Positions 5,073-59,072 of a stretch of DNA of 64,000 nt are shown here, piece after piece; positions within the stretch are counted from its first letter, which is position 1; each line of letters starts with the position of its first letter. Location: the NCBI GenBank assembly GCA_963820825.1, contig CAWGBN010000009.1, forward strand, positions 192,001-256,000. The letters run 5' to 3'. A program made the position numbers and the translations under genes. Origin of the DNA: Vulcanimicrobiota bacterium (GTDB lineage: Bacteria; Vulcanimicrobiota; Vulcanimicrobiia; Vulcanimicrobiales; Vulcanimicrobiaceae). Under the pieces are notes generated by a model. It did no database searches and was not told the DNA's origin. It worked only from the letters and a program-made list of their open reading frames with translations.

Positions 5073-5080
5073 CCTGCCGG

Positions 5081-6061: not shown

Positions 6062-6065
6062 CGCG

Positions 6066-12925: not shown

Positions 12926-12943
12926 TTGTGAAAGTTTTCACAA
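12926..12943. promoter_or_regulatory. Rex operator (NADH/NAD+-sensing repressor site)
   Basis: TTGTGAA-AGTT-TTCACAA, an exact match to the TTGTGAA-N4-TTCACAA consensus, 3 nt upstream of the nuoA ATG. Confidence 0.85.
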
Positions 12944-12979
12944 GCGCTGCCCCATACCTGGCTCCAAACGGGCGCCACG

Positions 12980-16503: not shown

Positions 16504-16545
16504 TTCTGAAACGATTTCGAACGCCGCCCCTGCTACGATGGTATC

Positions 16546-16625
16546 GGGAGTCGCGACAGAGCCGTAGCTCGTCGCGCTTGGAGCGCTCCGCGGGGGACGG
16601 GTCCGGGAGACCGTCCCCCCGCTCT
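16546..16625 (+). ncRNA. Candidate small structured RNA or leader (two hairpins downstream of an extended -10)
   Basis: TGcTACGAT at 16531-16539; hairpin CGCGAC-A-GAGC/cgta/GCTC-GTCGCG; GC-rich hairpin GCGGGGGACGG…CCGTCCCCCCGC. Confidence 0.3.
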
Positions 16626-16685
16626 CATCTATCGACGCTACCGCACCGCGGGGAACTTCACCGCACCAACGCAAAGAAATCAAGA

Positions 16686-35300: not shown

Positions 35301-35863
35301 CGCAGGCCGCGCGCGAATTCGCTGCGGATTCCGGCGATTGCCGCTTTGAGTTCGAGCAGATCCTGCATCGTCTCGAGGATGAGCAGATCGACGCCGCCGT
35401 CGACGAGCGCGCGCGCCTGCTCGGCGTAGACGTCGCGCAGCTGCACGTAGCTGACGTTGGAGAGCATCGGGTCGGAGGACGAGACCAGCATGCCGGTCGG
35501 TCCCATCGAGCCGGCGACGAAGCGCGGATGCTCGGGCGTCGAGAACGTGTCGCAGGCCGCACGCGCGATCTCCGCCGCGCGCAGATTGATTTCGCGGGTA
35601 CGCTCGCCGAGTCCGTACTCGTCGAGCTTGATCCTCGATCCGGTGAATGTGTCGGTCTCGACGACGTCGGCGCCGGCGGCGAGATACGATTCGTGGATCG
35701 CGCGAACGATTGCGGGGCGCGTAAGCACGAGCCCTTCGTTGCACCCGTTGTAGGCGGCCCCGCCGAAATCGTCGGCAGAGAGCTCCAGCGCCATGAGTTG
35801 CGTGCCCATGGCGCCGTCAAAGAGCACGACCCGCTCCTCGAGGCGACGCAGATACTCAGGCAT
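32336..35863 (-). CDS. metH: Cobalamin-dependent methionine synthase
   Basis: FDGAMGT, GLNCSTGP, GGCCGT, IVGERINAQGS, GDVHDIGKNLV…SALL, RYSWGYGACPDL. Confidence 0.96.
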   Translation of the reverse strand: MPEYLRRLEERVVLFDGAMGTQLMALELSADDFGGAAYNGCNEGLVLTRPAIVRAIHESYLAAGADVVETDTFTGSRIKLDEYGLGERTREINLRAAEIARAACDTFSTPEHPRFVAGSMGPTGMLVSSSDPMLSNVSYVQLRDVYAEQARALVDGGVDLLILETMQDLLELKAAIAGIRSEFARGLRRVPIQAQPTLITEGRMLLGTDIRAICAVLDALEVDVVGLNCSTGPAQMRDSIRYLCERSRAFVSVIPNAGLPLMGPQGETIYPEGPEELARELVAFVRDFGVDVVGGCCGTTPAHVAALRAAIDAVARKPRRAPGQRGEEVASAITAVALEQQPAPLIVGERINAQGSRKIKRLLLEERYDDIVLVAREQVEGGAHVLDVCCALTERPDEDHQMREVVRRLAQSIEAPLAIDSTEPKVLELALQNYPGRAILNSVHLESGRAKIDAVLPIAREHGAAVVALTIDESGMAKSASHKAEVARRIFDIVTGEYGLPPGALIFDALTFTLATGEAEFAASALETIEGIRRIKRELPGVLTSLGISNVSFGLKPNARAALNSVFLHHCVEAGLDCALVHPKEIVPYFEIDAAIRELCDDLVFNRRPDALTRLIEHFEAEGPAGSAVLSEERSDESKGTIEERIHRAILHRRKDGIETKIDEALQRYTAVEVLNEILLPAMKDVGDRFGRGELILPFVLQCAEVMKKAVAHLEQFLERREGATKGTVVLATVFGDVHDIGKNLVHTILANNGYTVHDLGKQVPVNTILEKAVEVRADAIGLSALLVSTSKQMPICLEEQDARGLRFPVIVGGAAINRDFGRRIALLENGSRFFEPGLFYARDAFEGLELIDALTSDPQRREQLVERTKREAFEQLQRRREAPVRVATAVRSAIKEHRADVPVPPFWGARVLGGDRTSLTPSEVEARRIDLRELWPCFDLRSLYRLSWGGSNTKGSAFDRLVAEEFDPRLRRYQDEALGGNVLEPRVVYGYFPAAGAGDDVILYDPGDARTEIARLTFPRQAGGEHLSLADYLRDPSEGAGSDVVALQIVTVGSKATQRIEALQAAGEYSESYFLHGFSVQAAEALAEYTHRRIRRELGLDAARGKRYSWGYGACPDLEQHAVVFRLLDATAAIGVTLTEGFQIVPEQSTAAIVMHHPQAAYFNAAATRELAAS
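33074..33106. repeat. REP-like repeat copy inside metH
   Basis: GATCCTTCGCGCTTCGACTTCGCTCGGCGTGAG; encodes LTPSEVEARRI. Confidence 0.6.
33945..33979. repeat. REP-like repeat copy inside a metH interdomain linker
   Basis: CCCTTCGACTCG-tcgctgcgct-CCTCGCTCAGGAC; encodes VLSEERSDESKG. Confidence 0.75.
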
Positions 35864-36869
35864 TCTCAGGGACAATCGCTCGAACTTCTCCTACCACGTC
35901 TCCGGCCCGATTATACACTGCGGGGTGCGCAAACCGCTCGAGCTGAGCGATCTGCCGCTCGTCGAGAACCCCGATCCGCTGCAGTACGGCAAGCGTCGAC
36001 GGTCCGCGGGCGCGCGAACCGCCGTCGATCACTTTCGAGACGTATCCGTACTCTCGCGCGATCGCAGCGACTGCGTGAACTCCCTCCGCACCCGCCTTTG
36101 CGGCGATCGTGCCGCGCCCTGCGAGCATCAGCTCGGTGTCGAACTGGTTGGTTCCGGCGACGTACTCGGGATGAGCGACCATTGCGTCGCGCACGATGCG
36201 CAGCGCCTCCGCATCGCGATCGCCGACTCCGTGCAGCGACGCAAATCGTGCAAACGATCGGGCCGCCCGGCGCAGGCTGGTCGCGTAGACGGGGATGCCG
36301 CAGCCGTCGACCGCAATCGGCCAGACCGCCGGATCGTCGTCGGAGAGGCGCGCGCAAAACTCCAAAATCCGTCGTTGTGCCGGGTTGCGCGCTTCTAAAT
36401 AGGTGCCGGGATCGGCACCGATGATCTTGCAGAGGGCGAGAATGCCGGCGTGTTTTCCCGAACAGTTGTTATGCAGCGCGGTCGGCCGTTGCCCGGAACG
36501 CAGAAGTTCGCTCGCCGCGGCTTCGCCGTACGGCAGATGCACGCCGCATTGGAGCGCCGATTCATCCATGCCGATCTTCTCCAGTATCGAACCCACCGCG
36601 CGAACGTGCATCGGCTCGCCGAAGTGAGAGGCCGCCATGACCGCAATCTCCCGCTCGTCGAGACCGAACGCGTCGCGCGCGCCGGCTTCGATTACGGCGG
36701 CGGCGATGAACGGCTTTGCCGCCGAGCGCAGGTAGACCGGCACGTCGACGTCACCGGCGGCATACACGGTTCGATCCGCCGCATCGACCGCGCAGGCGGC
36801 GACGCGATGGACCGACTCGACGAGGTCCCCTCGCATTACCTCAACTAAGATGGCGCGGCCTGTTGTCAC
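35856..36869 (-). CDS. Asparaginase II family (Rhizobium AnsA-like)
   Basis: RGDLVESVH, RSAAKPF, ASHFGE, NNCSGKH, DGCG, AKAGAEG. Confidence 0.88.
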   Translation of the reverse strand: MTTGRAILVEVMRGDLVESVHRVAACAVDAADRTVYAAGDVDVPVYLRSAAKPFIAAAVIEAGARDAFGLDEREIAVMAASHFGEPMHVRAVGSILEKIGMDESALQCGVHLPYGEAAASELLRSGQRPTALHNNCSGKHAGILALCKIIGADPGTYLEARNPAQRRILEFCARLSDDDPAVWPIAVDGCGIPVYATSLRRAARSFARFASLHGVGDRDAEALRIVRDAMVAHPEYVAGTNQFDTELMLAGRGTIAAKAGAEGVHAVAAIAREYGYVSKVIDGGSRARGPSTLAVLQRIGVLDERQIAQLERFAHPAVYNRAGDVVGEVRAIVPENA

Positions 36870-36887: not shown

Positions 36888-37850
36888 TCAAACCAGCGCT
36901 GGTTCGACGATCGTCGCCTCTTGTTCGGCGAAGACGGGATTGCTCAGATAACGCTCGCCGGTGTCGCAGCCGATCGTGACGACACTCTTCCCACGCATTG
37001 CGGGGCGCGCCGCAACGGTGAGTGCGGCCCAGACGTTGGCGCCGGTCGAGATGCCGACGAGCATACCCTCCTCGCGTGCCAACCGGCGCGTGGTCGCGAT
37101 TGCATCGGCATCGGTAACGCGAATCACTTCGTCGTAGATCTGCGTGTTGAGCACTTTTGGTACGAACCCCGCGCCGGTGCCTTGAATCTTATGCGGACCG
37201 GGCTTGCCGCCGGAGAGGACGGGCGAGGCGTCGGGTTCGACGGCAACGATCGTCACGCCGGCCTTACGCGCCTTGAGCACCTCACCGACGCCGGTCATGG
37301 TTCCGCCGGTGCCGATCGCCGAAACGACGACGTCGACCGCGCCGTCGGTATCGCGCCAAATCTCCTCGGCGGTCGTACGGCGATGAATCTCCGGATTCGC
37401 CGGATTTTCAAACTGCTGCGGCATGAAAAACTTCTCGGCGCCGCCGGCGAGGATCTCATTCGCGCGGCGAAGCGCGCCCGGCATCCCCTCGGCGCCCGGC
37501 GTGAGCACGACTTGCGCTCCGTACGCCTTGAGCAGATTCCGCCGCTCGATGGTCATCGTCTCCGGCATCACCAGAATGAGCGGATATCCCTTCGCCGCGG
37601 CGACGAAAGCCAGCGCGATGCCGGTATTCCCGCTCGTCGCCTCGAGGATCGTCATGCCCGGACGGAGGCGGCCGTCGCGTTCGGCCGCTTCGATCATCGC
37701 GACGCCGATCCGATCCTTCACCGAGCCGGCCGGGTTGAACGACTCCATCTTCACCAATACGGTTGCGGGAAGATCGCGCGCCATTCGGGGGAGTTTCACC
37801 AGCGGCGTATTGCCGAACGTGTCGGCGAGATTCTCATAGATTCGTGCCAT
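36888..37850 (-). CDS. cysK: Cysteine synthase A
   Basis: [42 protein letters not shown]. Confidence 0.95.
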
Positions 37851-37907
37851 AGTACTCGGACTTAACCCTCACTAGGAGTCGGCCGTTGCAACTGAGTATC
37901 AGCGGCC

Positions 37908-39650
37908 ATGCGGTTACCCTCCTTCGCCACACGAGCGGCGCTCGTTGCAATCCTCATCTCGTGGACGCTCCCACCGGCTCCCGCACCGGCGGCCGGCGAG
38001 CCGACCATGGAGGCCGCACTCGACGCCATCGCGGCTTTCGCACCCGAAGCGATGCGCCGCCAGGGCACGCCGGGACTCTCCGTCGCCGTAACCGACCGCA
38101 CGCGGACGCTGCGCGTTATTACGCTCGGCTACGCGAATCGCGACGCGAGCCAGCCGGTCACGCCGCAGACGCGGTTCGCGATCGGATCGATCACCAAGTC
38201 GATGACGGCGCTCGCGCTGCTGCAGCTTCACGATGCCGGGCGCGTCGATTTGAACGCGCCGGTGCCCCGATATCTTCCGTGGTTCGCGATCGACAGCGGT
38301 GGAAAGCCGATCCTCATTCACGAGCTGCTCTCGCATACCGCCGGCATCCCCGACGATTTTGCGGCGGAGGCCGGATACCGGTACGACATCCTCGCGCTGC
38401 GTCGCGCCAAGACGCTCTTCGCGCCGGGAACGGCGTGGTCGTATTCGAATGACGGCTATGCGACCGCCGGAGCGATTCTGGCGCGGCTCGACGCACGCTC
38501 TTGGCCGGCATCCGTTACGGCGCGCGTCTTCGAGCCGCTCGGCATGACGAACAGCTCTGCAGTCTTCACGCCCGCGGCGATGAGCGGCGCGGCGATCGGC
38601 TACCAGTTCCGCGATAACGACCGCCCCGCACCGCAGAATCCGGCACTCGTTGCATCGCCGCCTCTCGACTTCGTCGATCCAGCCGGTTCGGTGCTCTCGA
38701 CGCCCGAGGACATGGCGCAATACATGCGCTTTTACCTCAACGGCGGACGCACGGCGAACGGAGACCAGCTCATTGCGCCGGCAACCTTTGCGGCGATGAC
38801 GCACTCGGACCGCCTGATCGATGGAAAGCCCGCCGGCTCGCCCGGCGCCGAACTCGCCGAGTGGCCGGAATTCTACCGCGGCTATGGATTCGGCCTATCG
38901 ACGTTCGATGACGGCGGCGATCATCTCGTCGGCCACACCGGGGGAATCTCCGGATACACCGCCTGCATGCAGATGAACCTCTCGCGCGGCTTCGGCGTGA
39001 TCGCGTTTGCCAATCTCGTCGAGGCGCCGCTCCACCCGTGCGCGATAGTGCGCTACGCGATGCAGGTGCTGCACGCGCAGAACCTCGGTGAAGCGCTTCC
39101 GGCGCCCCCGGCGCCGGACGACCCGATGCACGTCGCCCACGCGAACGAGTACGACGGCACGTATACGTCGGCCGACGGTACGTCGCTGCGCGTCGTGAGC
39201 CAAAACGATCGCGTGCAGCTTCTCGACGGTTCCAAGACGATCGCCCTCTATCCGCGCGGACCCGATCTCTTCTGGGCCGACGATCCGAAGTACGCGCTCT
39301 TTGCCCTCGCCTTCGGACGCGATCGCAACCGGTCGGTCGTCGAGATGACCTTCGGCTCGCTGTGGTATCCGAACGAGCGCTATCGCGGCCCACGCACGTT
39401 CTCGCATCCCGCGTCGTGGGACGCGCTCGCCGGACGCTACGAGAACACGTTCTTCGGGGAGCCGGCGGTCACGCGCGTTCTTATCGTAAAGAATCACCTG
39501 ACCTTCGACGGAACCGACGAGCTTAAACCGTTGGCCGACGGCAGCTTCGCGCTCGGGAGCTCCGTCGTTCGCTTCGATTCGTACGCCGGCAGCGAGCCGC
39601 AGCGCGTCTGGCTCGACGCGACGCCGCTCTACCGCGTCGAGCTGCCCTAA
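37908..39650 (+). CDS. Secreted serine hydrolase, beta-lactamase (AmpC-like) family
   Basis: Signal peptide; FAIGSITKS, LLSHTAG, YSN, HTGG. Confidence 0.88.
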   Translation: MRLPSFATRAALVAILISWTLPPAPAPAAGEPTMEAALDAIAAFAPEAMRRQGTPGLSVAVTDRTRTLRVITLGYANRDASQPVTPQTRFAIGSITKSMTALALLQLHDAGRVDLNAPVPRYLPWFAIDSGGKPILIHELLSHTAGIPDDFAAEAGYRYDILALRRAKTLFAPGTAWSYSNDGYATAGAILARLDARSWPASVTARVFEPLGMTNSSAVFTPAAMSGAAIGYQFRDNDRPAPQNPALVASPPLDFVDPAGSVLSTPEDMAQYMRFYLNGGRTANGDQLIAPATFAAMTHSDRLIDGKPAGSPGAELAEWPEFYRGYGFGLSTFDDGGDHLVGHTGGISGYTACMQMNLSRGFGVIAFANLVEAPLHPCAIVRYAMQVLHAQNLGEALPAPPAPDDPMHVAHANEYDGTYTSADGTSLRVVSQNDRVQLLDGSKTIALYPRGPDLFWADDPKYALFALAFGRDRNRSVVEMTFGSLWYPNERYRGPRTFSHPASWDALAGRYENTFFGEPAVTRVLIVKNHLTFDGTDELKPLADGSFALGSSVVRFDSYAGSEPQRVWLDATPLYRVELP

Positions 39651-39661
39651 CCGGTGTCATC

Positions 39662-39937
39662 CTAACTACCGACGTCCCAGAGCAATCCGAGATCTTTCTT
39701 CGAGAAGGACCGGAAGGCGATCAGCGTCTCGGTGCCGAGGATCCCTTCGAGCGCCGCGACGCGGTCGGTTACCAGATCGTTGAGCTCCTCGTGCTGCCGG
39801 ACGCGTGCGACCGCGATGAGATCGTAGGGACCGGCGACCGAATAGACTTCGGCGATGCCGTCGATGGCGAGCAGATCGTCGGCAATCGAACGCAGGCGCG
39901 GGCGCTCGACAGTCATGAGAATGAATGCAGTGACCAT
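39662..39937 (-). CDS. Lrp/AsnC ligand-binding-domain protein
   Basis: MVTAFILM…EVYSVAGPYDLIA…TETLIAF. Confidence 0.85.
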   Translation of the reverse strand: MVTAFILMTVERPRLRSIADDLLAIDGIAEVYSVAGPYDLIAVARVRQHEELNDLVTDRVAALEGILGTETLIAFRSFSKKDLGLLWDVGS

Positions 39938-39938
39938 G

Positions 39939-40100
39939 CTATGCGATCCCGGCCGGTGCGGCGAGCGCACCGTTGCAGTTCGGGCAGCGCCCGTTCATCT
40001 CGTCAGCACAGACCTCGCAGAACGTGCATTCGTACGAGCAGATTCGCGCATCGGTGCGATTCGGCAACGGCCGGGCGCACCGTTCGCAGGAGCTTTTCAT
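39939..40100 (-). CDS. Small Cys-rich DUF1272-like protein (53 aa, not in the ORF track)
   Basis: MKSSCERCARPLPNRTDARICSYECTFCEVCADEMNGRCPNCNGALAAPAGIA. Confidence 0.82.
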   Translation of the reverse strand: MKSSCERCARPLPNRTDARICSYECTFCEVCADEMNGRCPNCNGALAAPAGIA

Positions 40101-40160
40101 TCAGAAGCCTATATGCCGCCAATCGCAGCGGCACCTGGCGCGTTTGAGAGGAGCGAGTGC

Positions 40161-41102
40161 ATGCAAGCCGTCGTCGTCGAGCATCGCGGAGAAGCCGGAT
40201 CGTTACGAGAGATCGCCGCGCCCGAGCCGGGACCGCACGAAATTCTCGTTCGCGTCACGGCGGCCGGAGTCAATCCGATCGATTGGAAGCTGCGCGACCG
40301 CGACGACCGCCGTTTTCCATTCGTTCTGGGACAGGATTTCGCCGGCGTCGTGAGCGCGACGGGCGGCCGGGTTACGAAGTACCGAGAGGGCGAGCGCATA
40401 TTCGGAATCGCCCGCGACCATGGCGCTTACGCGCAGTACACGATCGTTCCGGAAAACGACCACGAGCAACCCGTCGCCAAAATTCCCGACGCCGTCGGCG
40501 ATGCCGATGCCGCAGCGCTGCCGACCGCCGGCTTGACGGCGCTGGCCGCACTCGAGGCGCTGCACGTCGCAAAGGGAACCACGCTGCTCGTTCTCGGTGC
40601 AACCGGCGGCGTCGGCGGCTTTGCCGTCCAGATCGCGCACGACCGCGAAGCGCGCGTCATCGGCACCGCCGGATCGGCAAACGAGGCTGCGGCGCGTTCG
40701 CTCGGCGTCGACGAGTTCGTCGCGTACGATCGTCAAGACGTTGCAGCGGCGGTGAAAACCGCACATTCGGAAGGCGTCGACGCCGTGCTCGATCTCGTCG
40801 ACGATGCGAAGGCGATCGAGGCGATGGCCGGCGTGATTCGTCCCGGCGGCAGCATCGTTTCCACAATCGGCGCGGCCGGCGTGGATTGGTTCACGCAGCG
40901 CAAGATCACCGCGCAGAATCTCGTCATGACTCAGACGCCGCAATCCTCGCACGCCGGGTTACGCACGCTGCTCGAGCTCGTCGAGCAGGGGCGAATGCGC
41001 GTGACCATCGCCGCAGAGCGTCCGCTCGCCGAGGCCGTCGACGCACTCGAACGGCTCAAGCGCGGATCCGTCACCGGCAAGATCGTGATCACGGTGGATT
41101 AA
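40161..41102 (+). CDS. NADP-dependent oxidoreductase (MDR/quinone oxidoreductase family)
   Basis: AAGVNPIDWK, LGQDFAGVV, LVLGATGGVG, GKIVI; SD GAGGAG. Confidence 0.9.
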   Translation: MQAVVVEHRGEAGSLREIAAPEPGPHEILVRVTAAGVNPIDWKLRDRDDRRFPFVLGQDFAGVVSATGGRVTKYREGERIFGIARDHGAYAQYTIVPENDHEQPVAKIPDAVGDADAAALPTAGLTALAALEALHVAKGTTLLVLGATGGVGGFAVQIAHDREARVIGTAGSANEAAARSLGVDEFVAYDRQDVAAAVKTAHSEGVDAVLDLVDDAKAIEAMAGVIRPGGSIVSTIGAAGVDWFTQRKITAQNLVMTQTPQSSHAGLRTLLELVEQGRMRVTIAAERPLAEAVDALERLKRGSVTGKIVITVD

Positions 41103-41113
41103 TGGAAGAGCTA

Positions 41114-41137
41114 CTTCGCCGCTTCGCTCAGGATGAG
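41114..41137. repeat. REP-like repeat, intergenic
   Basis: CTTCGCCGCTTCGCTCAGGATGAG between convergent genes. Confidence 0.6.
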
Positions 41138-41171
41138 AACTGTGGAGCCGCGCCGCTAGGACGCGCCGAAC

Positions 41172-42029
41172 CTACTTGTTCTTGAAGCGGGCGACGCGCT
41201 TTTCGTTGTAGGCCGCGAGCCCTTCTTTTGCATCCTCGCTCTTGAAGAGCAGCGACTGCAGTTCGCGTTCGAGCGCGAGCGCATCTTGCAACGGAAGCTC
41301 GGCGCCGGTCTGCACGCTGCGCTTGATGTGGCCGACGGCCATCGGAGCTTTGTTCGGCGAACAGAACTGCTTGGCGTAATCGAGGATCTGCTCGCGAAAC
41401 TCTTGCGCGCTGCCCTCGAAGAGATCGTTGAGCATGCCCCATTCGAGCGCCTGTTCGTAACTCACCGTCTTGCCGGTGGTCATCATCTCGATCGCGCGCG
41501 ACTTGCCGACGAGGCGTGCGAGGCGCTGCGTTCCGCCGGTACCCGGAAGCACGCCGAGCGCGACCTCGGGAAGGCCGATCTTTCCCGCGTCCTTGCGGGC
41601 GATGCGCAGATCGGCAGCCATTGCGATCTCCAAACCGCCGCCCACGCAGTGGCCGTTGAGAGCCGCGATCACCAGTTTCGGCGTCTGCTCGAGACGTTGC
41701 AGCGTCTCGTTGGCATGCAGACAGAACATGTACTTGAACTCGGGCGTTACCTGATTGAGCATGCCGATGTTGGCGCCGGCCGAGAAGAACTTCTCGCCCT
41801 TGCCGGTCAGCACGATCACTTCCACGTCGGAGTCGAAGCGCGCGTCCAAGATCGCTTCGTCGATCTGGCGCATCATCTCGTGCGTGTACGTATTTGCCGG
41901 CGGATCGTCCATCTCTACGAACGCGACGTGCCCGTCCTTCCAATAGTTGATGACGCGCTTGCCGTCGAACGGACGCGCCTCGCGTCCGAAGGGCGTCTGC
42001 TGGGCTGCTCTATCGACCGTCGTGCTCAT
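41172..42029 (-). CDS. Enoyl-CoA hydratase/crotonase (single domain; possible ring-opening partner of the BoxB-like enzyme)
   Basis: FFSAGANI, GHCVGGGLE, GLPEVALGVLPGTGGTQRL; ATG overlaps the stop of the boxB-like gene. Confidence 0.9.
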   Translation of the reverse strand: MSTTVDRAAQQTPFGREARPFDGKRVINYWKDGHVAFVEMDDPPANTYTHEMMRQIDEAILDARFDSDVEVIVLTGKGEKFFSAGANIGMLNQVTPEFKYMFCLHANETLQRLEQTPKLVIAALNGHCVGGGLEIAMAADLRIARKDAGKIGLPEVALGVLPGTGGTQRLARLVGKSRAIEMMTTGKTVSYEQALEWGMLNDLFEGSAQEFREQILDYAKQFCSPNKAPMAVGHIKRSVQTGAELPLQDALALERELQSLLFKSEDAKEGLAAYNEKRVARFKNK

Positions 42030-43147
42030 GCAAGTTTTCCTTTGGGTGCGATCCAGTTCGGATCCTTAAAGTACTCTTTGAGTTTCGTTTCGTCGGCCTG
42101 CGTCGGGAGAACGGTCGGCGCGTAGGCCTCCCATTCGGCATCCGTCAGAACTCGGCCGTCAACGCCATAGTGCTCTCCGGCGTAGTCGCCGATCTTCCGG
42201 TTGAAGCGCATGTCCGGAATATAGAGCTTCGTTTCGCTCGCGTTTACTTCGTTGACGCGGGCAACCGTCGAGAGCGCTTCCTCGTAAAACTGCGTACGCG
42301 CGCGCTCGTTGAGATGCTCCTTGTCCGGCTGCTCGCCGGCTTGATCCTCGTCGACGCGCCCCTTGATGCCCCAGGTATAGGCCCACTGTGCCGAACCCGA
42401 GTGATCGGTTCCGAAGAGATCGAGCGATCCCGAGAACCATTTGTTGTAATATTTCTGCTGGATCTCAACCGGGATGACGCCGGCTTTGGCGATGCGGCGC
42501 AAGCCGGTGATGCCCGTTCCCATGTGAAAGGACTCTTCGCGAAGCATCGGCCCCATCGACGCGGCGAGCGGAGCGAAGCTCGAATGCGAGAGCATCGTGA
42601 GCTGAAACTTACCGTCGCGGTCCATGAAGTTGGTGTAGGCGAAAAAGTCGAGCCAATGCGTGACGTCGTCGTTGAAGGCGTTGAGCAGCCGGTTCTTCTT
42701 TCCGAAGGCACGGCGCTCGAGCATCTTCTGCGCCTCGATCTTCCCTTCGCTGCCGAAGTGATTCACCATCAGGTGGCACATCTGATATCCATGACGAGTC
42801 TCTTCGACCATAATCCGCACGAGCGCGGCGAGATCGTACTCGCTCGGCGCGTTGTTGACCAGGAATCGCTGCTGCTCGTTTGAGGCGAACTCGGTGTCGC
42901 CCTGATAGACGACCATGTTGAGCACCGCGTCGCGCATGCGCTGGTCGGGAATCTCCCGCACGCGATCCCAGCGGCGGTCGCCTTTGAAGTCGCCGAAGTA
43001 GATCTCGCTGGTCGGCAGCTCGCCGTACTTCGCCTCGAACTCATACCCCGGCATGAAGCGGTCGACCAGCTCGCGGTCGAGGCCGATGTCGTGCCTCCAC
43101 TCGTCGAGCATCGTAATCCAGTCGTCAAAGGTCGAGATGCGGCTCAT
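42026..43147 (-). CDS. BoxB/PaaA-like di-iron aromatic-CoA epoxidase subunit (short, 373 aa)
   Basis: QGDTEFASNEQQ…APSEYDL…EETRH…DRDGKFQL…EESFH, resembling BoxB motifs; start set at the SD-led ATG 43147. Confidence 0.82.
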   Translation of the reverse strand: MSRISTFDDWITMLDEWRHDIGLDRELVDRFMPGYEFEAKYGELPTSEIYFGDFKGDRRWDRVREIPDQRMRDAVLNMVVYQGDTEFASNEQQRFLVNNAPSEYDLAALVRIMVEETRHGYQMCHLMVNHFGSEGKIEAQKMLERRAFGKKNRLLNAFNDDVTHWLDFFAYTNFMDRDGKFQLTMLSHSSFAPLAASMGPMLREESFHMGTGITGLRRIAKAGVIPVEIQQKYYNKWFSGSLDLFGTDHSGSAQWAYTWGIKGRVDEDQAGEQPDKEHLNERARTQFYEEALSTVARVNEVNASETKLYIPDMRFNRKIGDYAGEHYGVDGRVLTDAEWEAYAPTVLPTQADETKLKEYFKDPNWIAPKGKLA

Positions 43148-43163
43148 TACCTGCCTTCCAGCG

Positions 43164-43202
43164 TATAACGGATTTTCGTCGATCGTCGGGAATACCGTCA
43201 TA
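43164..43202. promoter_or_regulatory. Widely spaced inverted repeat, candidate PaaX operator
   Basis: TATAACGG-N23-CCGTCATA overlapping the -10 and predicted TSS of the boxB-like promoter. Confidence 0.45.
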
Positions 43203-43228
43203 CTAAATGCCCGCTGAGCGTGTGTCAA
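43200..43228 (-). promoter_or_regulatory. Sigma70-type promoter for the boxB-like gene
   Basis: TTGACA-17 nt-TAGTAT on the minus strand. Confidence 0.7.
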
Positions 43229-43278
43229 GTCAGAATTCCTTAACGACTGCGTATAGCGCAGTCCAGAGCGAGACGCCG

Positions 43279-44121
43279 GTGCGCCGAGTTAAAGGGGCGA
43301 GCGAACGGCAGGTCGCGCGCCCAAATTCCTTTATCTTCACGCTCTACGGCGACATGGTCCATCGCCGCTCGGGCGACACGTCGCTCTGGATCGGGGCCCT
43401 GATCCGCCTGATGGCCTCGTTCGGCGTCTCGCCTGCGGCCGTTCGCCAGGCCGTTTCGCGAATGGCGCGCCAGGGTTGGCTGGTCGCTCGCCGGGAGAAA
43501 AACCGGGCATTCTATAGCGTCACCGAGCGCGGGCGGCGACGGATCGAAGAGTTGAGCCCGCGGATCTACGGGCCGGTCATCGAGTGGGACGGCCGCTGGC
43601 GCTTGCTGACCTATGCGATCGGGGAGGCCCACCGCAAGCGACGCGAGCGCCTGCGCAAAGAGTTGAGCGCGCTGGGATGGGCGCAGCTCTCGCCGACTGC
43701 CTGGATCTCGCCCTCCGATACGCTGGCCGCCGCTCGGGCGGCCGCGGACGCGACCAAGACGCTCGACGCGGTCAACCTCTTCACCAGCGAGTACCGCGGC
43801 CCGCGCAGCGATCGGGAGCTGCTCGAGCGATGCTGGAACGTAGAAGAGATCGCGGCCGCCTATCGGGCCTTCATCGCCCGCTACCAGCCGCGGCTTCGTC
43901 GCGAGCGGGAGCGCAGCGGTTTAAGCGACGAGGCGGCGCTCGTCGAGCGGCTCTGGCTCGTTCACGATTATCGGAAGTTCGTTTACGTCGACCCGGGACT
44001 TCCCAGCGAGCTCTTGCCGGCGCACTGGCCCGGGACCGCCGCCGCCGCGCTCTTTCGCGAATACTACGCGGCGCTCGACGCGAAATCACAACGATACTTT
44101 CATCAATGTACGACGGCGTGA
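43279..44121 (+). CDS. paaX: PaaX-family transcriptional repressor
   Basis: SFIFTLYGD…AVRQAVSRM…WDGRW…DPGLPSELLPAHWPG. Confidence 0.9.
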   Translation: MRRVKGASERQVARPNSFIFTLYGDMVHRRSGDTSLWIGALIRLMASFGVSPAAVRQAVSRMARQGWLVARREKNRAFYSVTERGRRRIEELSPRIYGPVIEWDGRWRLLTYAIGEAHRKRRERLRKELSALGWAQLSPTAWISPSDTLAAARAAADATKTLDAVNLFTSEYRGPRSDRELLERCWNVEEIAAAYRAFIARYQPRLRRERERSGLSDEAALVERLWLVHDYRKFVYVDPGLPSELLPAHWPGTAAAALFREYYAALDAKSQRYFHQCTTA

Positions 44122-44159
44122 AACGGGGGCGCGCGCCGGCGCGTCGAAGCGACCCGCCC

Positions 44160-44548
44160 ATGCCCAAAAGCCTGCTCCTCGCGCTCGCCGTCGCCGCGCT
44201 CGCCATCGCGGCATGCAGCAACAACTCCGCCTCGCCGAGCCCGAGCGTCTCGCCCGGATCGCCGATGCCGGACCCCTCGATCACCACGGCCAAACTCTTC
44301 GTCTCCGTCAACGGCACCCGGCAGCAAAAATTCCCGTGGAGATATCGACGCCCAAGAACACGGCGAGCCCGCGTCCGGGCACACCCTTCGAGACCAAGGA
44401 TACCGGCAAGAAGGGACTGGTGAAATTCAAAGATCTCAAACCGAGCAAGATCTACTGCTGGGTCGCGATCATCGCGCCGAGCTTCAAATCGTCCGAGTGC
44501 GCCGGATGGCAAATCTGGCAGGGCAGTACGATTAATCTAGGGACTTAG
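44160..44548 (+). CDS. Hypothetical lipoprotein (frameshift near 44318)
   Basis: MPKSLLLALAVAALAIAAC lipobox, SP-rich linker; continues …KIPVEISTP…CWV…ECAGW in the next frame. Confidence 0.65.
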
Positions 44549-44871
44549 CTGTCATCGTCGTGTAAGTGAAGGTGGCAGCCATCTTCCGCTTCCGATAGCA
44601 CGTCGCGCGCTTCGGAGAGGACCGCCGTCGATAACGGACGGCTCGGCGGCTCGACCGAACCCGACTCGGCCAAGAAGTCGACTTCGCTCCAATCCTCCCA
44701 CGTCTCCAGCGGCTCGGCGTCTTTGCTCGCGGGGAAGCGCACGCAGAACCCCTGGTCGAGGTGAAGCCCGACGACGGTCACTTCGGTGCCGCGCGGGAAG
44801 TACGTTCCGTCTTTCCAGAGCGTCCCGTACGTCGTGCTGTACTCTCCGCCGATTTTGAGCGGTTCGTCCAT
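44545..44871 (-). CDS. Hypothetical acidic protein
   Basis: 108 aa directly after the aldehyde dehydrogenase gene; SD-like GAGAG. Confidence 0.6.
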   Translation of the reverse strand: MDEPLKIGGEYSTTYGTLWKDGTYFPRGTEVTVVGLHLDQGFCVRFPASKDAEPLETWEDWSEVDFLAESGSVEPPSRPLSTAVLSEARDVLSEAEDGCHLHLHDDDS

Positions 44872-44881
44872 AATCTCTCGT

Positions 44882-46378
44882 CTATACCCCGAATGGGTTC
44901 ATCGGTTTCTCGCCGATGTAGGTAAGCACGCTCTTGGTCTCGGTGTAGAGTCGCATCGTCTCCATGCCAAGCTCGCGGCCGTACCCGGATTGCTTGTAAC
45001 CGCCGAACGGTACGCCCGGAAAGACGGCGTACGGCGTGTTGATCGCGACGGATCCGCTGCGGATCGCGCGCGCGACGCGATTCGCGCGTCCGAGGTTCGT
45101 CGACCAGACGCTCGCCGCCAAACCGTACTCGCTTGCGTTCGCGAGTGCGATCGCCTCGGCTTCGTCGGCGAAGCGAACGAAGGTCGCTACCGGACCGAAG
45201 ATCTCTTCGCGAGCGATGCGGTGCGTGTTCTGCGCCTCAAATGCGGTCGGACTCCAGAACGTTCCGGCAGAAAACGCATCGCCGAGCTCCGGCGGTGCAC
45301 CGCCCAAAAGCACCTTCGCCCCTTCGGCGACGCCGATCTCGCAGTACGTCGCTAATCTTTTGGTGCTGGTCGCGCAGCGTGATCGCACCGATCTGCGTCG
45401 CCGGATCTTCGGGATCGCCGAGCCGCAACTGTTTTGCCTTCTCGGTGAAGAGCGCGACGAAGCGATCGTAGATTCCGCTCTGAACGAGAATCCGCGAACG
45501 CGCTTCGCAGCACTGGCCGGCATTGTAGTAGACGCCGTAGAGCGCGCCCGCGACGGCCGCGTCGATATCGGCATCGTCGAAGACGACGGCTGGCGATTTT
45601 CCGCCGAGCTCGAGCGTGACGCGTTTGAGGGTCTTCGCGGCCGCCGCTGCGACGTTCTTTCCCGTCTCGGTCGAACCGGTGAATGCAATCTTGTCGATGC
45701 CGGGATGCTCGACCATCCACGCGCCGATCGGCCGCGTCCCGACCGGTGAGCACGTTGAGCACGCCTTCGGGGACGCCGGCTTCGAGTGCGAGCCTCCCCA
45801 ACTCGATTGCCGTGAGCGGTGTTACCGACGACGGCTTCAAGACGATCGTGCAGCCGGCAGCGAGTGCGGGCGCGACCTTCCACGACGCGAGCAGCAGCGG
45901 AAAGTTCCACGGAACGATCGCGCCGACCACGCCGACCGGCTCGCGCACGGTGTCGGCAAGATATGGTTGGAATCGGTGGCGGAAGCGTCTCGCCGTAGTT
46001 CTTTGTCGCCGCGCCCGCATAGAATTCGAAGCAATCCACGATCGCGCCGACTTCGCCTTTTGCCGTCGCGATGGTCTTGCCGTTGTCGCGCACCTCGAGC
46101 AAGGCGATTTCGGCCGCGCGCTCGCCGATCAGTTGTGCGAGCTTGTAGACGATCTTCGCGCGCCGCGAGGCGGCCATCGTCGGCCAGCGCCCGGCATCGA
46201 AAGCCTGGCGCGCGGCGGCGATCGCCGCATCCACGTCCTCGCGCGTCGCGTCGGCGACGTCGGCAATCTTCGCGCCGGTCGCCGGATTGAAATTTTCGTA
46301 AATGCCGCCGTCGGCCGCATCGCGCCACTGCGAACCGATCAGCAGTTGCGTTTTGGTCATCGTTGAGGTCGTGGTCAT
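44882..46378 (-). CDS. Aldehyde dehydrogenase (about 3 frameshifts near 45965, 45740 and 45350)
   Basis: [49 protein letters not shown] spread over three frames. Confidence 0.9.
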
Positions 46379-47589
46379 GTCGCTGCCTTCAACTCCACGC
46401 GCTCGAATACCGTTGCGATCCCCTGGCCGACCCCGATGCACATCGTCGCCAAACCGTACCGTCCCCCGCGCCGGCGCAGTTCGTGCAACAGGGTAGTCGC
46501 GATGCGCGCGCCGCTCGCGCCCAAGGGATGGCCGAGCGCGATCGCACCGCCGTTCGGGTTGGTGCGCTCGCGATCGAAAGCGAGATCGCGTATGCAGGCA
46601 ATGGCCTGCGCCGCGAAGGCTTCGTTGATTTCGATCACGTCGAGGTCGCCTGCCGCAAGACCGATGCGATCGAGCGCTTTACGTGTCGCGGGAATCGGCC
46701 CCAAGCCCATGACGTCCGGTGAAACGCCGGCCGCAGCGCATCCGGCAAACCGCGCCATCGGTGCGAGTCCCAACCGGAGCGCCGTACCGGCTTCGCAGAG
46801 CAAGAGCGCCGACGCGCCGTCGTTGATTCCCGAGGAGTTCCCCGCGGTCACCGTACCGCCGCTCTTAAAGGCCGGAGCGAGCTTGGCGAGCCGATCGAGC
46901 GTCGTCTCCGGACGAGGATGCTCGTCGCACGTCACGAGATCCTCGGCGCCTTTGGCATCGGGTATCGAAACCGCGACGATCTCGTCGTCGAACGCGCCGC
47001 GTTCGATCGCCGCTTTGCATTTCATCTGCGACTCGAAGGCGAAACGGTCTTGCTCCTCGCGCGCGATGCCGTATCGTTCGGCCACCTTCTCAGCCGTCTC
47101 GCCCAATGCGATCGTCCACTCCGCGGGCATTGCGGGATTGACCATCCGCCAGCCGAGCACCGTATCGAAGAGCTGCTGCTTTCGCCCGAACGGCGCATCG
47201 CTCTTCGGCAGAACGTACGGCGCGCGCGTCATCGACTCCACGCCGCCGGCGATCATAACGTCGCCCTCGCCGCAGGCAATCGCCTGCGCCGCGGAGTTGA
47301 TCGCCTGCAGGCTCGAACCGCAGAGACGATTGACCGTCGCTGCGGGAACCTCGACCGGAAATCCCGCGAGCAGCACCGCCATACGGGCGACGTTGCGATT
47401 ATCTTCGCCGCTTTGATTCGCCGCGCCGAGATAGACGTCGTCGATCGCCGACGGCGAGATACCGTTGCGCTCGACGATCGCACGAAGCACGAGCGCGGCG
47501 AGATCGTCGGGTCGAACGCCGGCGAGCGCTCCGCCGTATCGTCCGATCGGCGTGCGAACCGCATCGATCACCCAAACCTCGCGACTCAT
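46375..47589 (-). CDS. paaJ: Thiolase, 3-oxoadipyl-CoA thiolase-like (PaaJ/PcaF)
   Basis: [45 protein letters not shown]. Confidence 0.88.
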
Positions 47590-49183
47590 TGCGGCGCCTC
47601 TTCGGCCGGCGTCTCTTCAGCCGGCGGCTGTTCGGCGACGTCGAGCGTCCAAAGGGCGCGATGCGGGGCAAACGCTTCGCCTTCGGCGGCAGCCAGACGC
47701 TCAGAATTCGGCTCACGCGCGCTCCGCCGATCTCGCGCCCCCATTCGACCGGCCCGATGGGATAGTTTGCGCCGAGCCGCATCGCCGTGTCCACGTCCTC
47801 CGGCGAAGCGACGTCTTCGCTCACGGCAACGACCGCCTCGTTTACGATCGAGCCGATCGTCCGTCCGAGAAAGAGCCCCGGAGAACTCTCAACCAAGATC
47901 GCGCCCTTGCCGAGCTCGGCAAAGAGCTCTTGCGCGAGTTCGAGCGCGTCGTCGGAGACCTCTTCGGCATCGACGATCTCGACGACGCTCTGCGCTTCGA
48001 GGCTGCCGAGGATGCCGTATCCGACGAGCCGCTCGGGATGGCGCATTCGCCGCGCACAAGCGGCGAGATCGGTTCCGTACGCATCGACGAAGAAGACGCA
48101 CTCCGTGCCGAGCAGCGAATCGAGAGCGGCCACGACGTCGCCACGATCGGTCGCTGCGTCTCCCGCATCGATTACGATCGTCGAATCGGCCGAGAGCTCG
48201 TCGAGAAAGTCGTCGTTTTCAATGCGCCGTACGTGAGCGTACCGGCGCTCGAGCCGTTCGGCGAACTCGTCGGCGCGCGCGCCAAAACCCACCACCGCAA
48301 CGAACTCCTCGGCGTTGCGTTCGCCCTGCGGCTCCTCGACGACGGGGTCGAAACGCTCGGCTTTACCATCGCGGTAGACGTAGAACCCGCGACCGCTCTT
48401 GCGCCCGAGGAGTCCTTGGGCGACCATTGAGCGCTGCAAATCGACCGGGGCGAAGCGTTCGGCTTGCGTGCGCTCGTAGATCGACTCGCTCGTCGCGAGA
48501 TTGACGTCGAGACCGATCAAATCCATCAGCTCGAAGGGGCCCATGCGGAAGCCGGCGCCCCGCGCGAGCGCGTCGAGCTCCTCGATCGAAGCGACGCCGC
48601 GCTCGAGCGCGTGCAATGCCTGGAGGTAATAGGGACGGGCGACGCGGTTGACGATGAATCCCGGCGTATCGGCGGCAAGCACGGCGGTCTTGCCCATCTG
48701 CTCGGCGGCCGCAAACGCTCGCTCGAGCGTCGCATCGCTCGTCTGCGGCGCGGCGACGACTTCGAGCAGCGCCATACGCGCCGGCGGGTTAAAGAAATGA
48801 AGGCCGACGACGCGCTCCGGATTCGGCACGGTGCCGGCGAGTTCGCCAACGGCCAGCGACGAGGTGTTCGTCGCAATCATCGCTTGCGGCGAGAGCGCGC
48901 GCCCGAGCGCGGCCAAGACCTCGCGCTTGAGATCGAAGCGTTCGGGTACGGCTTCTATCGCAATCACCGCGTCGCTCGAGCTCGGAATCGCATCGAGCCA
49001 AGCGATGCGCGCGCCGATTGCGGAATCGCCGCAGCGTTGCGCCTCGCGCTCGATCAGCGCGTTGCTGCGTTCGCGGGCGGCAGGCTGCGGTTCGACGATC
49101 TCAACGGCGTAGCCGCCGCGGGCAGCGACGAAGGCGATGCCCGCTCCCATGGTTCCGCCACCAACGACGAGGAAACGTTCCAT
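47586..49183 (-). CDS. paaH: 3-hydroxyacyl-CoA dehydrogenase, PaaH-like (frameshift near 47700)
   Basis: [47 protein letters not shown], duplicated C-terminal domain. Confidence 0.85.
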
Positions 49184-49239
49184 CGGCTCGGGTTTCGGCG
49201 AGAGGAGGTTCAAACGCCTCGCCGGAGGATTGGCTCGCT

Positions 49240-49788
49240 ATGGAAAAGCCCCAATGGCGCCTGCGCGCGTCGCGCTACGTCGTCGATTCGCCCTATATGC
49301 GCCTGCGAATGGACGAAGTCGAGCTTCCCAATGGAACGGTCGTGCCCAACTACTACGTTCGCGAGTCGCGCGGATACTCAGTCGTCGTCGCCTTGACCGC
49401 GGACGAGCACGTCGTCCTCGTCCGCCAGTATCGCTACGGGTCCGACGCGATCCACCTCGAGCTGCCGGCGGGGCTGCTGAACGAGGACGAAGACCCACGC
49501 GAGTGCGCGTTGCGCGAACTAGCCGAAGAGACGGGTTACGAGGTCGACCGCTGCGAGCTGGTGGGAGCGTTTCTCCACGAACCGGTCCGCTCGAACGCGC
49601 GCGCCTACGTTTATATTGCCGCGGGCGCCCGCAGCGTCCGCGCCCAGAACCTCGACCCGACCGAGCATCTCACTGTCGAGCTCGCGCCGCTTGGCCTCTT
49701 TCGGACGATGCTGGGGGACGGACGGATCGACGCGGGCGGCTCGATCGCGGCCGGCTACCTCGCGCTCGACAAGCTGCACGCGCTTTGA
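49240..49788 (+). CDS. NUDIX hydrolase (ADP-ribose pyrophosphatase-like)
   Basis: LVRQYRY…ELPAGLLNEDEDPRECALRELAEETGY Nudix box. Confidence 0.9.
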   Translation: MEKPQWRLRASRYVVDSPYMRLRMDEVELPNGTVVPNYYVRESRGYSVVVALTADEHVVLVRQYRYGSDAIHLELPAGLLNEDEDPRECALRELAEETGYEVDRCELVGAFLHEPVRSNARAYVYIAAGARSVRAQNLDPTEHLTVELAPLGLFRTMLGDGRIDAGGSIAAGYLALDKLHAL

Positions 49789-58194: not shown

Positions 58195-59072
58195 GACGCG
58201 GCGCGTTTCTGGGTTGCGCCGGCGCGGCGCTGCTCGCATCGCACGCGACGCGCGCCGATGCCGCGACGGTAACTGCGAAGATTCGCCGGATCGCGCGCGC
58301 GATGCCCGGAAGGATCGGCGTCTACGCCCGCACGCTCGCCCCCGGTGCGCCGATCGTTGCCTACGACGCGTCGCACCGCTTTCCGACCGCGTCGATCATC
58401 AAAGTACTGATCATGACGACCGCATACGCGGTCGACGAAACGGAGCCCGGAGCGCTCTCGGCGCGGGTGACATACCATAGCGGCGAGCTGATCGGCGGCT
58501 CCGATTTCATGAGTCAGGCCAGAGACGGCAAGCGTTTCACCGTCCGCGAGCTCATCGTTCCGATGATTCAGTTGAGCGACAACACCGCCGCGAATATGCT
58601 CATCGGTCACTTCGGAGTCGCCACCATCAACGCCGTCGGGCGGCGTGCCGGCTTGAAGCGGACGCACCTCGCGCGCCAATTCATGGATTTTGCGGCAATC
58701 GCGCACCACAACGACAACGTCTCGACCCCGGCCGATATGGGGCATCTCCTCTATCTGATCGAGCGCGGCGCGCGCGAGGGCTTCGGCACGATCGTTTCGG
58801 CACGCCACTGCCGCGAGATGGTCGCGATCATGCTCGGCCAGACCGACCGCGACGGAATTCCGGCGGCGCTGCCGCACGGAACCTCCGTTGCGAATAAGAC
58901 CGGCGAGGTCGACGGGACGCGCAACGACATCGCGATCGTCGAACCGTTCGGCGACTCACCCTTCATCCTCGCGATTATGACCGCCGATGCCTACGACTAT
59001 GCAGCGGCGTACGCGGCGATCCACGCCGTGACGCGCGCGACCTATGCCGAGGCTGCCCACTCTTACGAGTGA
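58191..59072 (+). CDS. Tat-exported class A beta-lactamase-like serine hydrolase
   Basis: RRGAFL Tat signal; ASIIK (SxxK), SDN, KTG. Confidence 0.85.
   Translation: MRRGAFLGCAGAALLASHATRADAATVTAKIRRIARAMPGRIGVYARTLAPGAPIVAYDASHRFPTASIIKVLIMTTAYAVDETEPGALSARVTYHSGELIGGSDFMSQARDGKRFTVRELIVPMIQLSDNTAANMLIGHFGVATINAVGRRAGLKRTHLARQFMDFAAIAHHNDNVSTPADMGHLLYLIERGAREGFGTIVSARHCREMVAIMLGQTDRDGIPAALPHGTSVANKTGEVDGTRNDIAIVEPFGDSPFILAIMTADAYDYAAAYAAIHAVTRATYAEAAHSYE

Follow-up and report, generated by a model that had tools for sequence, protein, structure and literature searches.

The 64,000-nucleotide stretch analysed here (the window; C9:192001–256000 of genome G000) carries, at positions 41172–49183, a seven-gene module built around a short diiron oxygenase of the BoxB lineage. 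The host is a soil bacterium of the little-cultured phylum Eremiobacterota, with a genome of 2.98 Mb on 9 contigs that is 85% complete, and the nearest named records are Eremiobacterota/Vulcanimicrobiota metagenome-assembled genomes (MAGs) labelled Candidatus Cybelea or Baltobacteraceae. The locus is composed of two minus-strand operons and a divergent plus-strand PaaX-like gene, and its seven genes are a conserved catabolic module of the Baltobacteraceae-type Eremiobacterota. We give about an even chance to the reading that the module encodes an epoxidation pathway for benzoyl-coenzyme A (benzoyl-CoA) or a close analogue, which is independent of BoxA and BoxC and takes its electrons from a donor not encoded in the module.

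Only a few aerobic strategies break the benzene ring, and CoA-dependent epoxidation of the ring is one of them. It is represented by two studied enzyme systems, Box and Paa, each with a dedicated reductase. The Box pathway of Azoarcus/Aromatoleum evansii consists of the BoxA reductase, the BoxB epoxidase (PDB 3PER, 3PM5 and 3Q1G), the BoxC dihydrolase, the BoxD dehydrogenase and the regulator BoxR, while the Paa pathway of E. coli consists of the PaaABCDE epoxidase, PaaG, PaaZ, PaaJ, PaaF, PaaH, PaaK and PaaX. In both, as outlined in the review PMC4498308, the CoA-bound ring is epoxidised and opened hydrolytically to an aldehyde, the aldehyde is oxidised, and β-oxidation follows.

The BoxB-lineage oxygenase

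The oxygenase gene (42026–43147, minus strand) encodes a protein of 373 amino acids (aa), the proposed aryl-CoA ring epoxidase. The motifs by which an earlier, sequence-only reading of the window had recognised a diiron protein (GDTE..EQQ, EETRH, DRDG and EESFH) are all present in the translation. Against the BoxB model TIGR03225, the protein scored 225.3 bits (cut-off 499.1) and aligned with model positions 85–325 and 348–440 of 471; the canonical BoxB proteins of relatives reach 750–790 bits with the same model. Its score with the PaaA model TIGR02156 was 36.7 bits, as compared to a cut-off of 280. The best solved sequence relative is BoxB (PDB 3per, E 7e-55), and an AlphaFold model computed from a 26-row alignment, with a predicted local distance difference test score (pLDDT) of 94.4, superposes on 3pm5 with a query template modelling (TM) score of 0.90 at 31% identity, as compared to TM scores of 0.53–0.55 for the PaaA chains.

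To compare the active sites, we aligned the oxygenase with a canonical BoxB (P0152, 908 bits), using the diiron ligands and the benzoyl-CoA pocket residues of Azoarcus BoxB as listed in PMC5489048. All six iron ligands are kept: E86, E116, H119, D176, E205 and H208 correspond to E120, E150, H153, D211, E240 and H243 of BoxB. In the benzoyl-CoA pocket, Q82, T85, S89, F158 and F168 (Q116, T119, S123, F193 and F203 of BoxB) are preserved, accounting for five of the seven residues. The other two differ, with F206 replaced by Y171 and T210 by M175, and the canonical BoxB sequences retain both F206 and T210. The protein is about 100 residues shorter than BoxB, and four segments are missing: the N-terminal stretch together with a 21-residue insert, 19 residues that follow the second ExxH helix, a piece some 25–45 residues long and the C-terminal tail. 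A short BoxB-like paralogue of 367 aa, labelled as a Myxococcota MAG (P0166), has lost five of the six ligands (QADCH, QENVTS, NLCAK and QQHGEH in place of the motifs), and it recalls PaaC, the non-catalytic relative of PaaA.

In two trees, the canonical BoxB sequences form a clade (support 100/98 and 100/100) that excludes the oxygenase of the window, which instead falls together with further Eremiobacterota sequences and with a metagenome locus that is PaaX-linked (100/99). All other short forms collapse into a polytomy in both trees, with several long-branched rows, and the sister clade of the Eremiobacterota enzymes could therefore not be resolved. Thus, the oxygenase belongs to the BoxB lineage rather than to PaaA, and it lies outside the canonical BoxB clade. 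Nesting within either canonical family, which the sequence-only reading had named as one half of the outcome that would refute it, was not observed. In contrast, the description of a one-subunit epoxidase as a departure did not hold, since BoxB is already a monomer that requires no structural subunit (PMC4498308). The part that is missing is the reductase.

A full scan with the oxygenase among 1.84 billion representatives yielded 878 proteins at E 0.001, and only a handful of the full-length short proteins form clusters at 50% identity. A word-indexed search returned 4,984 matches, of which the best 120 are all 370–394 aa long and 78–92% identical.

Absent partners, conservation and relatives

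The usual partners of such an oxygenase were searched for in the genome itself, at its 85% completeness, and PaaC and PaaD were not searched with models of their own. The best match to BoxA (TIGR03224) was an 82-aa ferredoxin at 28.5 bits, and none exceeded the cut-off. The sole match to PaaA was the oxygenase itself, below the cut-off; nothing matched PaaK or PaaE at E 0.001, and PaaB likewise had no match. The best PaaZ match (TIGR02278, 102 bits) is located away from the module and also falls below the cut-off. For BoxC (TIGR03222), where membership is marked by a protein of about 550 aa scoring above 712 bits, the best match in the genome was the crotonase adjacent to the oxygenase, with 86 bits over model positions 52–235. 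Since the genome is incomplete, the searches for BoxA, PaaA and PaaK were extended to 26 genomes of the genus, of which 25 reach a completeness of at least 90%. BoxA and PaaA exceeded their cut-offs in 0/26, PaaK was found in 0/26 at E 0.001, and the sole PaaA-like match in each genome was the orthologue of the window oxygenase. The boxA/paaA set whose presence elsewhere would have argued against a streamlined pathway was thus found neither in this genome nor in 25 congeners, and the earlier observation that boxA, paaB, paaE, paaZ and a CoA ligase are absent from the window was borne out by these model searches (PaaC excepted, as above).

No AMP-ligase gene lies within the window, and the matches on the same contig are at C9:17787–19397 and C9:271192–272724. 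The best match in the genome to benzoate-CoA ligase is a frame-split AMP-ligase in the region C3:1–14000 (L176). Also encoded in this heavily frame-broken region are a sodium:solute symporter, a reading frame of the crotonase/acyl-CoA-dehydrogenase kind and pieces of old-yellow-enzyme and FAD-monooxygenase domains. The region may be a further cluster for an aromatic or alicyclic acid, from which the missing ligase could come.

Several candidate partners, electron donors among them, were considered and set aside. The two NuoF-like genes of the genome are both unlinked to the module: one belongs to the part of a complex I (nuo) operon at 4377–11480 on the minus strand of the window, with NuoD-, NuoE-, NuoF-, NuoG- and NuoI-like genes, and the second copy lies at C6:346981–348117. 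A phenylpyruvate:ferredoxin oxidoreductase, as a source of both the thioester and the electrons, was not represented by either of the two open reading frames (ORFs) of about 1,180 aa in the window, and the genome was not searched for this family. One of them (32336–35875, minus strand) is a full-length methionine synthase MetH (1075 bits), and the other (12928–16503, plus strand, 1191 aa) has weak matches to kinase/cyclase and TPR regulator models. A zinc alcohol dehydrogenase/quinone reductase at about 40161–41102 was also rejected as a partner, given that it adjoins the module in only 31 of 80 related loci.

Conservation was counted in 80 Eremiobacterota loci, many of them cut by contig ends, with flanks of up to 10 kb and minima of 50% for both identity and coverage. 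The oxygenase is present in 80/80, the PaaX-like gene and a 108-aa reading frame (ORF108) in 79/80 each, the crotonase in 76/80, the thiolase in 74/80 and the 3-hydroxyacyl-CoA dehydrogenase in 68/80. The aldehyde dehydrogenase (ALDH) gave a match of any kind in 78/80 and exceeded the coverage threshold only once, because the query was the broken translation from the window. The check on neighbourhood conservation suggested earlier therefore came out in favour of the module, which recurs as seven genes in most of the related loci. Its flanks are variable, with no ligase or reductase among them. In the phylum, 75 of 121 sampled genomes have an oxygenase match at E 1e-30, including 20/20 of the genus; canonical BoxB proteins with weaker matches are part of this count, as is genome G110. 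In two of the loci, a TonB-dependent receptor with a CarboxypepD_reg domain lies between ORF108 and the PaaX-like gene (L085:5811–8546 and L087:5883–8558).

Canonical Box clusters also occur in this phylum. Five genomes of sister genera were chosen for weak, partial matches in the 121-genome sample, and canonical BoxB (750–790 bits) was present in 5/5. In all three that were annotated (G048, G112 and G103), boxB is located beside a true BoxC gene (826–877 bits) and a BoxR-type regulator (L186 at G048:C32:33000–52000, L187 and L188, respectively). The G048 cluster adds a benzoate-CoA ligase (733 bits) and a flavodoxin gene between the ligase and boxR, and the G103 cluster adds a true BoxD (709 bits). 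BoxA exceeded its cut-off in 0/5 of these genomes, so that even the canonical epoxidase may operate without BoxA in this phylum, and the flavodoxin gene beside the BoxA-less cluster of G048 hints at the use of general carriers. G048 holds both the canonical boxR-boxC-boxB cluster and the short module, indicating that the latter is not merely the version of Box found in this phylum. The genome studied here has no close homologue of the ligase, flavodoxin, BoxC, BoxD or BoxR of the G048/G103 type.

Relatives of the oxygenase from other lineages were surveyed in 80 metagenome loci (L096–L175), many on contigs too short to judge. Most are 48–62% identical to the oxygenase of the window, and those of the P0136 type are 37–43% identical. 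An orthologue of the crotonase (56–70% identity) is found in 27/80 loci, and a TetR regulator stands beside the oxygenase in 16/80. A second crotonase occurs in 15/80 loci, being PaaG-like in L158 (214 bits), and a third in 6/80, resembling cyclohexa-1,5-dienecarbonyl-CoA hydratase in L158 (194 bits). Where such genes are seen in other phyla, the PaaG-like crotonase gene immediately precedes that of the oxygenase, and the crotonase orthologue immediately precedes the ALDH. The ALDH and a PcaF-like thiolase share one operon with the crotonase orthologue in L168, L171 and L174, and the ALDH alone is found in L128, L129 and L164. An HcrA-like subunit of 4-hydroxybenzoyl-CoA reductase is encoded in 4/80 loci (L158, L122, L146 and L164); in L158, an Hcr trio (12931–16799; alpha 1027 bits against a cut-off of 994.55, beta 334 and gamma 179) is found downstream of an operon that is headed by TetR and includes the short BoxB-type gene and three crotonase genes. 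In 4/80 loci, those of P0136-type relatives, a gene of the benzoate-CoA ligase family (424 bits, cut-off 375) stands beside the oxygenase. A NuoE-like 2Fe-2S ferredoxin is adjacent to the oxygenase in 19/80 loci, together with a NuoF-like flavoprotein in 14/80, and a CCG/4Fe-4S protein is nearby in 2/80. In the NuoE/F type, as verified with Pfam in L114, L116, L131 and L166, the next two genes directly after the oxygenase encode a thioredoxin-like 2Fe-2S ferredoxin of 107 aa and a NuoF-like flavoprotein of 419 aa, with radical-SAM and GAF-PtsP-like genes upstream and no crotonase or ALDH nearby. Neither Hcr nor a NuoE/F-like pair was found within 10 kb in any of the 80 Eremiobacterota loci.

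These clusters of other phyla, whether TetR-headed or of the three-gene NuoE/NuoF type, share the oxygenase family with the Eremiobacterota module (at 50–57% identity), and neither BoxA nor BoxC was seen in the annotated loci. The TetR type also has the same crotonase orthologue, ALDH and thiolase. The Eremiobacterota module differs from it in its PaaX-like regulator, its one crotonase, its long PaaH-type dehydrogenase and ORF108, which was found in the Eremiobacterota loci only. The term "minimal" applied earlier is therefore true of this phylum only, since relatives in other phyla have two or three crotonases in the cluster.

Proposed pathway and competing explanations

The crotonase (ECH-A; 41172–42029, minus strand) is a single-domain protein of 285 aa, and its start overlaps the stop of the oxygenase gene by 4 nt, in line with the coupling noted earlier between the two genes. 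It matches Pfam ECH_1 (184 bits), its best NCBIfam model is a generic enoyl-CoA hydratase (211 bits), and it falls below the cut-offs for PaaF (172 bits), PaaG (127 bits) and oxepin_alt (124 bits). Among solved structures, 2ppy is its best relative (247 bits), and its sequence contains the motifs GGGLE and LPE.

The second minus-strand operon starts with a PaaH-like long 3-hydroxyacyl-CoA dehydrogenase (47604–49183; ORF 47399–49213, start ATG 49183 from the translation). It has 3HCDH_N and 3HCDH matches and scores 399 bits with PRK08268 over residues 11–505 (cut-off 508) and 347.7 bits with the PaaH model TIGR02279 (cut-off 669), both scores being lowered by a frame shift near the 3' end of the gene. 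The thiolase that follows (404 aa, 46375–47589) is of the 3-oxoadipyl-CoA type (PcaF/PaaJ-like), with 575.1 bits for TIGR02430 pcaF, narrowly under the cut-off of 597, and 476 bits for TIGR01930 (cut-off 240); orthologues in L168, L171 and L174 are about 60% identical. The NAD(P)-dependent ALDH (44882–46378; ORF 44882–46441) has three frame breaks in the assembly. Its intact orthologue in L017 is of the BADH/HpaE/StyD type (465–516 bits), with 465–470 bits for the phenylacetaldehyde dehydrogenase models.

The last gene of this operon, ORF108 (44545–44871, 108 aa), is conserved and family-less, with no Pfam or NCBIfam match. Its orthologues in Eremiobacterota loci are 70–95% identical, the commonest phylum among clusters of look-alikes is Vulcanimicrobiota, and the 80 metagenome loci from other lineages did not yield it. 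It was considered and set aside as a small oxygenase subunit, for which a complex prediction from alignments gave no answer (score 0.00). A metal site at its near-C-terminal Cys is unlikely, because some orthologues have Ser there. Hence, the genes of the paaH-paaJ-ALDH operon are as the sequence-only reading had them, except that the ALDH and paaH genes are frame-broken and that this conserved reading frame had been overlooked.

From this gene content, a pathway can be proposed. The oxygenase would use O2 and two electrons to form an epoxide on an aryl-CoA ring, where the most likely substrate is benzoyl-CoA itself or a ring-substituted form close to it. The electrons would come from a donor outside the module, probably a general ferredoxin or flavodoxin system rather than BoxA; the NuoE/F-type partners in relatives imply that the family uses external reductants. 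The coupled crotonase may add water to the non-aromatic epoxide/oxepin and help its opening to an aldehyde, thus replacing all or part of BoxC; we propose it as a hydratase/hydrolase acting either on the epoxide/oxepin ring or on dehydroadipyl-CoA. The ALDH would then oxidise the ring-opened aldehyde, and its presence in the set fits an aldehyde-yielding ring opening as in Box and Paa. The PaaH-like dehydrogenase and the PcaF/PaaJ-like thiolase would complete β-oxidation to succinyl-CoA and acetyl-CoA. We favour benzoyl-CoA since the thioester contact and most of the pocket are kept, and since relatives have Hcr and benzoate-CoA ligase family genes as neighbours. The substrate, called unknown in the earlier reading, is therefore not wholly open, in that the context of the relatives points to benzoyl-CoA-type compounds.

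The proposed pathway resembles Box in the lineage, ligands, fold and most of the pocket of its oxygenase, which likewise works without a structural subunit, and in the order of a crotonase-family enzyme, an aldehyde dehydrogenase and β-oxidation. It differs from Box in lacking BoxA and the two-domain BoxC, in whose place stands the 285-aa crotonase, in an ALDH that is not of the BoxD type, and in a PaaX-like regulator instead of BoxR. With Paa it shares the PaaX-family repressor, the long PaaH-type dehydrogenase, the PaaJ/PcaF-type thiolase, crotonase-family steps and the strategy of epoxidising the ring of a CoA thioester. On the other hand, its oxygenase is not PaaA, one crotonase stands in place of PaaF and PaaG, and PaaB, PaaE, PaaZ and PaaK were not found. 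The word "hybrid" is thus fair for the gene families, a BoxB-like oxygenase being combined with PaaX-, PaaH- and PaaJ-like genes.

Several observations weigh against a benzoyl-CoA epoxidation pathway. The short forms all change F206 (to Y or W) and T210 (to M, I, V, Q or G), the sole exception being P0166, which keeps F206, and T210 has been linked to regio- and stereoselectivity in PMC5489048. The genome has no close benzoate-CoA ligase (the best candidates are 27–38% identical, one of them frame-broken), and no reductase was identified for the module. The crotonase is closer to ordinary hydratases than to BoxC or PaaG, and it is the only one in the module, while ring hydrolysis, isomerisation and hydration would all be required. 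Neither the BoxD model (NF008868) nor the PaaZ model (TIGR02278) is among the 25 families listed for the L017 ALDH. In the literature, we found no assay of any member of the short clade.

Further points on the same side also speak for phenylacetyl-CoA as the substrate. The dehydrogenase and the thiolase are Paa-like, and the regulator has three PaaX domains and scores 249.3 bits with TIGR02277, just under the cut-off of 264.55; in studied systems, the DNA binding of PaaX is relieved by phenylacetyl-CoA, according to PMC4498308. The coexistence of canonical Box and the short module in G048 suggests that the two systems may have different substrates. The module could accordingly be a Paa pathway in which a short BoxB-type enzyme takes the place of PaaABCDE and epoxidises phenylacetyl-CoA, the crotonase and ALDH serving as a split, PaaZ-less oxepin-CoA hydrolase and dehydrogenase ahead of PaaJ and PaaH. 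Such a split would agree with the scores of the ALDH orthologue with the phenylacetaldehyde dehydrogenase models and with the gene order of other phyla, where the PaaG-like crotonase precedes the oxygenase and the crotonase orthologue precedes the ALDH. We nevertheless consider this unlikely: a PaaK-type ligase was found in none of the 26 genomes of the genus, Q116, the BoxB residue that hydrogen bonds with the benzoyl thioester, is kept along with most of the benzoyl pocket, and the crotonase remains under the cut-offs for PaaG, PaaF and the alternative oxepin hydrolase. Moreover, the aromatic-specific neighbours in relatives are 4-hydroxybenzoyl-CoA reductase and benzoate-CoA ligase family genes.

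The two altered, selectivity-related pocket residues and the plain-hydratase character of the crotonase could also be taken to mean that the enzyme acts on another acyl-CoA, such as a heteroaryl-CoA or a cyclohexene-/cyclohexadiene-carboxyl-CoA, or catalyses another diiron reaction (hydroxylation, desaturation or aromatisation), with ordinary β-oxidation enzymes as its neighbours. A dienoyl-CoA-hydratase-like crotonase in relatives would fit such a substrate, a substrate that itself gave the electrons would make the lack of a reductase unsurprising, and the contexts of the family are heterogeneous, including the NuoE/F type without a nearby crotonase or ALDH. However, the enzyme shares its ligand set, CoA-thioester contact and fold with BoxB, an arene epoxidase, the conserved ALDH is hard to explain without a ring opening that forms an aldehyde, and the NuoE/F-type partners argue for a reductant-dependent oxygenase. 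We therefore regard this alternative, too, as improbable.

Beyond the benzoyl-CoA pathway proposed for Eremiobacterota, we tentatively raise a wider possibility, which we would not yet call likely: the short BoxB-type oxygenases may constitute a third, BoxA/BoxC-independent route of aerobic aryl-CoA epoxidation across soil phyla. It would combine single-domain crotonases and an ALDH of the class-1/2 type with lineage-specific donors, namely the NuoE/NuoF-like pair or, in Eremiobacterota, an unlinked ferredoxin or flavodoxin, and in Eremiobacterota a PaaX-family protein would sense a non-phenylacetyl aryl-CoA. The short clade does recur in other soil lineages beyond Eremiobacterota, and genes annotated as "boxB" in environmental data may conceal another pathway with another electron supply and perhaps other substrates among the plant- and lignin-derived acids of peat and acid soils. 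This raises the questions of how a BoxB-type diiron site is reduced without BoxA, whether a plain crotonase can open an epoxidised ring, and what signal a PaaX-family protein receives without PaaK. We found no paper describing the short BoxB clade or aromatic-CoA pathways in Eremiobacterota, and the main text of the paper on Vulcanimicrobium alpinum, a cultured member of the Baltobacteraceae (PMC9758169), contains no occurrence of benzoate, phenylacet-, benzoyl or aromatic.

Regulation, reading frames and flanking genes

The oxygenase-crotonase operon is preceded by a sigma-70-type promoter (43200–43228, minus strand; TTGACA, 17 nt, TAGTAT) that agrees with the consensus at 10 of 12 positions. 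It is one of two consensus matches in 41000–49600 (shuffle mean 0.9), and in an alignment of 81 upstream regions, 90% or more conserve each of its hexamers. Since the longest ORF of the oxygenase (to 43228) would start at a TTG that is part of the −35 box, the start at 43147 giving 373 aa is the better call. Directly downstream of the −10 box, an imperfect inverted repeat (ACGGTATTCC..GAAAATCCGT; 43168–43198, minus strand) lies within a block that is partly conserved among the 81 upstream regions, and the same pattern occurs in the window at only one other, weaker site (58852–58888). This repeat is a candidate operator for the PaaX-like protein.

The PaaX-like repressor gene (43207–44121, plus strand) is divergent from the oxygenase, as described earlier, and its product matches all three PaaX domains above their Pfam cut-offs (PaaX 79.5, PaaX_M 76.1 and PaaX_C 97.6 bits). 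Its start is probably GTG 43279 and not ATG 43207, because conservation is lost over 43210–43290 and because the oxygenase promoter occupies 43200–43228. The repressor probably binds the inverted repeat, at the point where transcription of the oxygenase gene would begin, and an aryl-CoA would release it. Upstream of the paaH operon, where a shared operator was sought, there is no matching repeat, the region being a 56-bp gap that faces a NUDIX gene. The earlier claim of PaaX control thus has motif support at the oxygenase promoter and none before the paaH operon.

The oxygenase, crotonase, PaaX, ORF108 and thiolase genes are intact. In the ALDH translation, the middle third is out of frame and the Aldedh match is split into two stretches; tblastn with the intact 499-aa orthologue (L017:6825–8321) returned four pieces in frames −2/−3/−1/−2, placing single-base indels near 45965, 45741 and 45358. 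In comparison with L017, the dehydrogenase has a frame shift near 47702–47741, so that its ORF runs to 47399, past the start of the thiolase gene. Frame breaks are also seen in unrelated genes, including the ligases at C3:2275–3775 and C9:17787–19397, and as partial domain matches along C3:1–14000. Nine long contigs with a completeness of only 85% seem to form the pattern expected of assembly indel errors, and the broken frames at the locus are very probably such indels and not signs of decay. The rival view, which is independent of the substrate, takes the four breaks relative to the L017 orthologues as evidence that the ALDH and dehydrogenase are pseudogenes of a decaying module, and it is very unlikely given the breaks in unrelated genes of the same assembly, its contig number and completeness, the five unbroken genes of the module and the retention of the oxygenase in 20/20 sampled genomes of the genus. 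Among sequencing runs, none was found to contain this genome: only four came up, each with 5–6% of the sampled words, and none of RNA.

The NUDIX hydrolase gene (182 aa, 49240–49788, plus strand) is divergent from the paaH operon and is kept there in 66/80 loci. Its motif resembles the ADP-ribose pyrophosphatase type more than the CoA type. Downstream of the crotonase, 36888–41102 encodes a PALP-family enzyme, a 580-aa beta-lactamase-family protein and a PIG3-type quinone oxidoreductase. They are found in the same order in 57, 45 and 31 of the 80 Eremiobacterota loci, respectively, and are unlinked to the module in other phyla.

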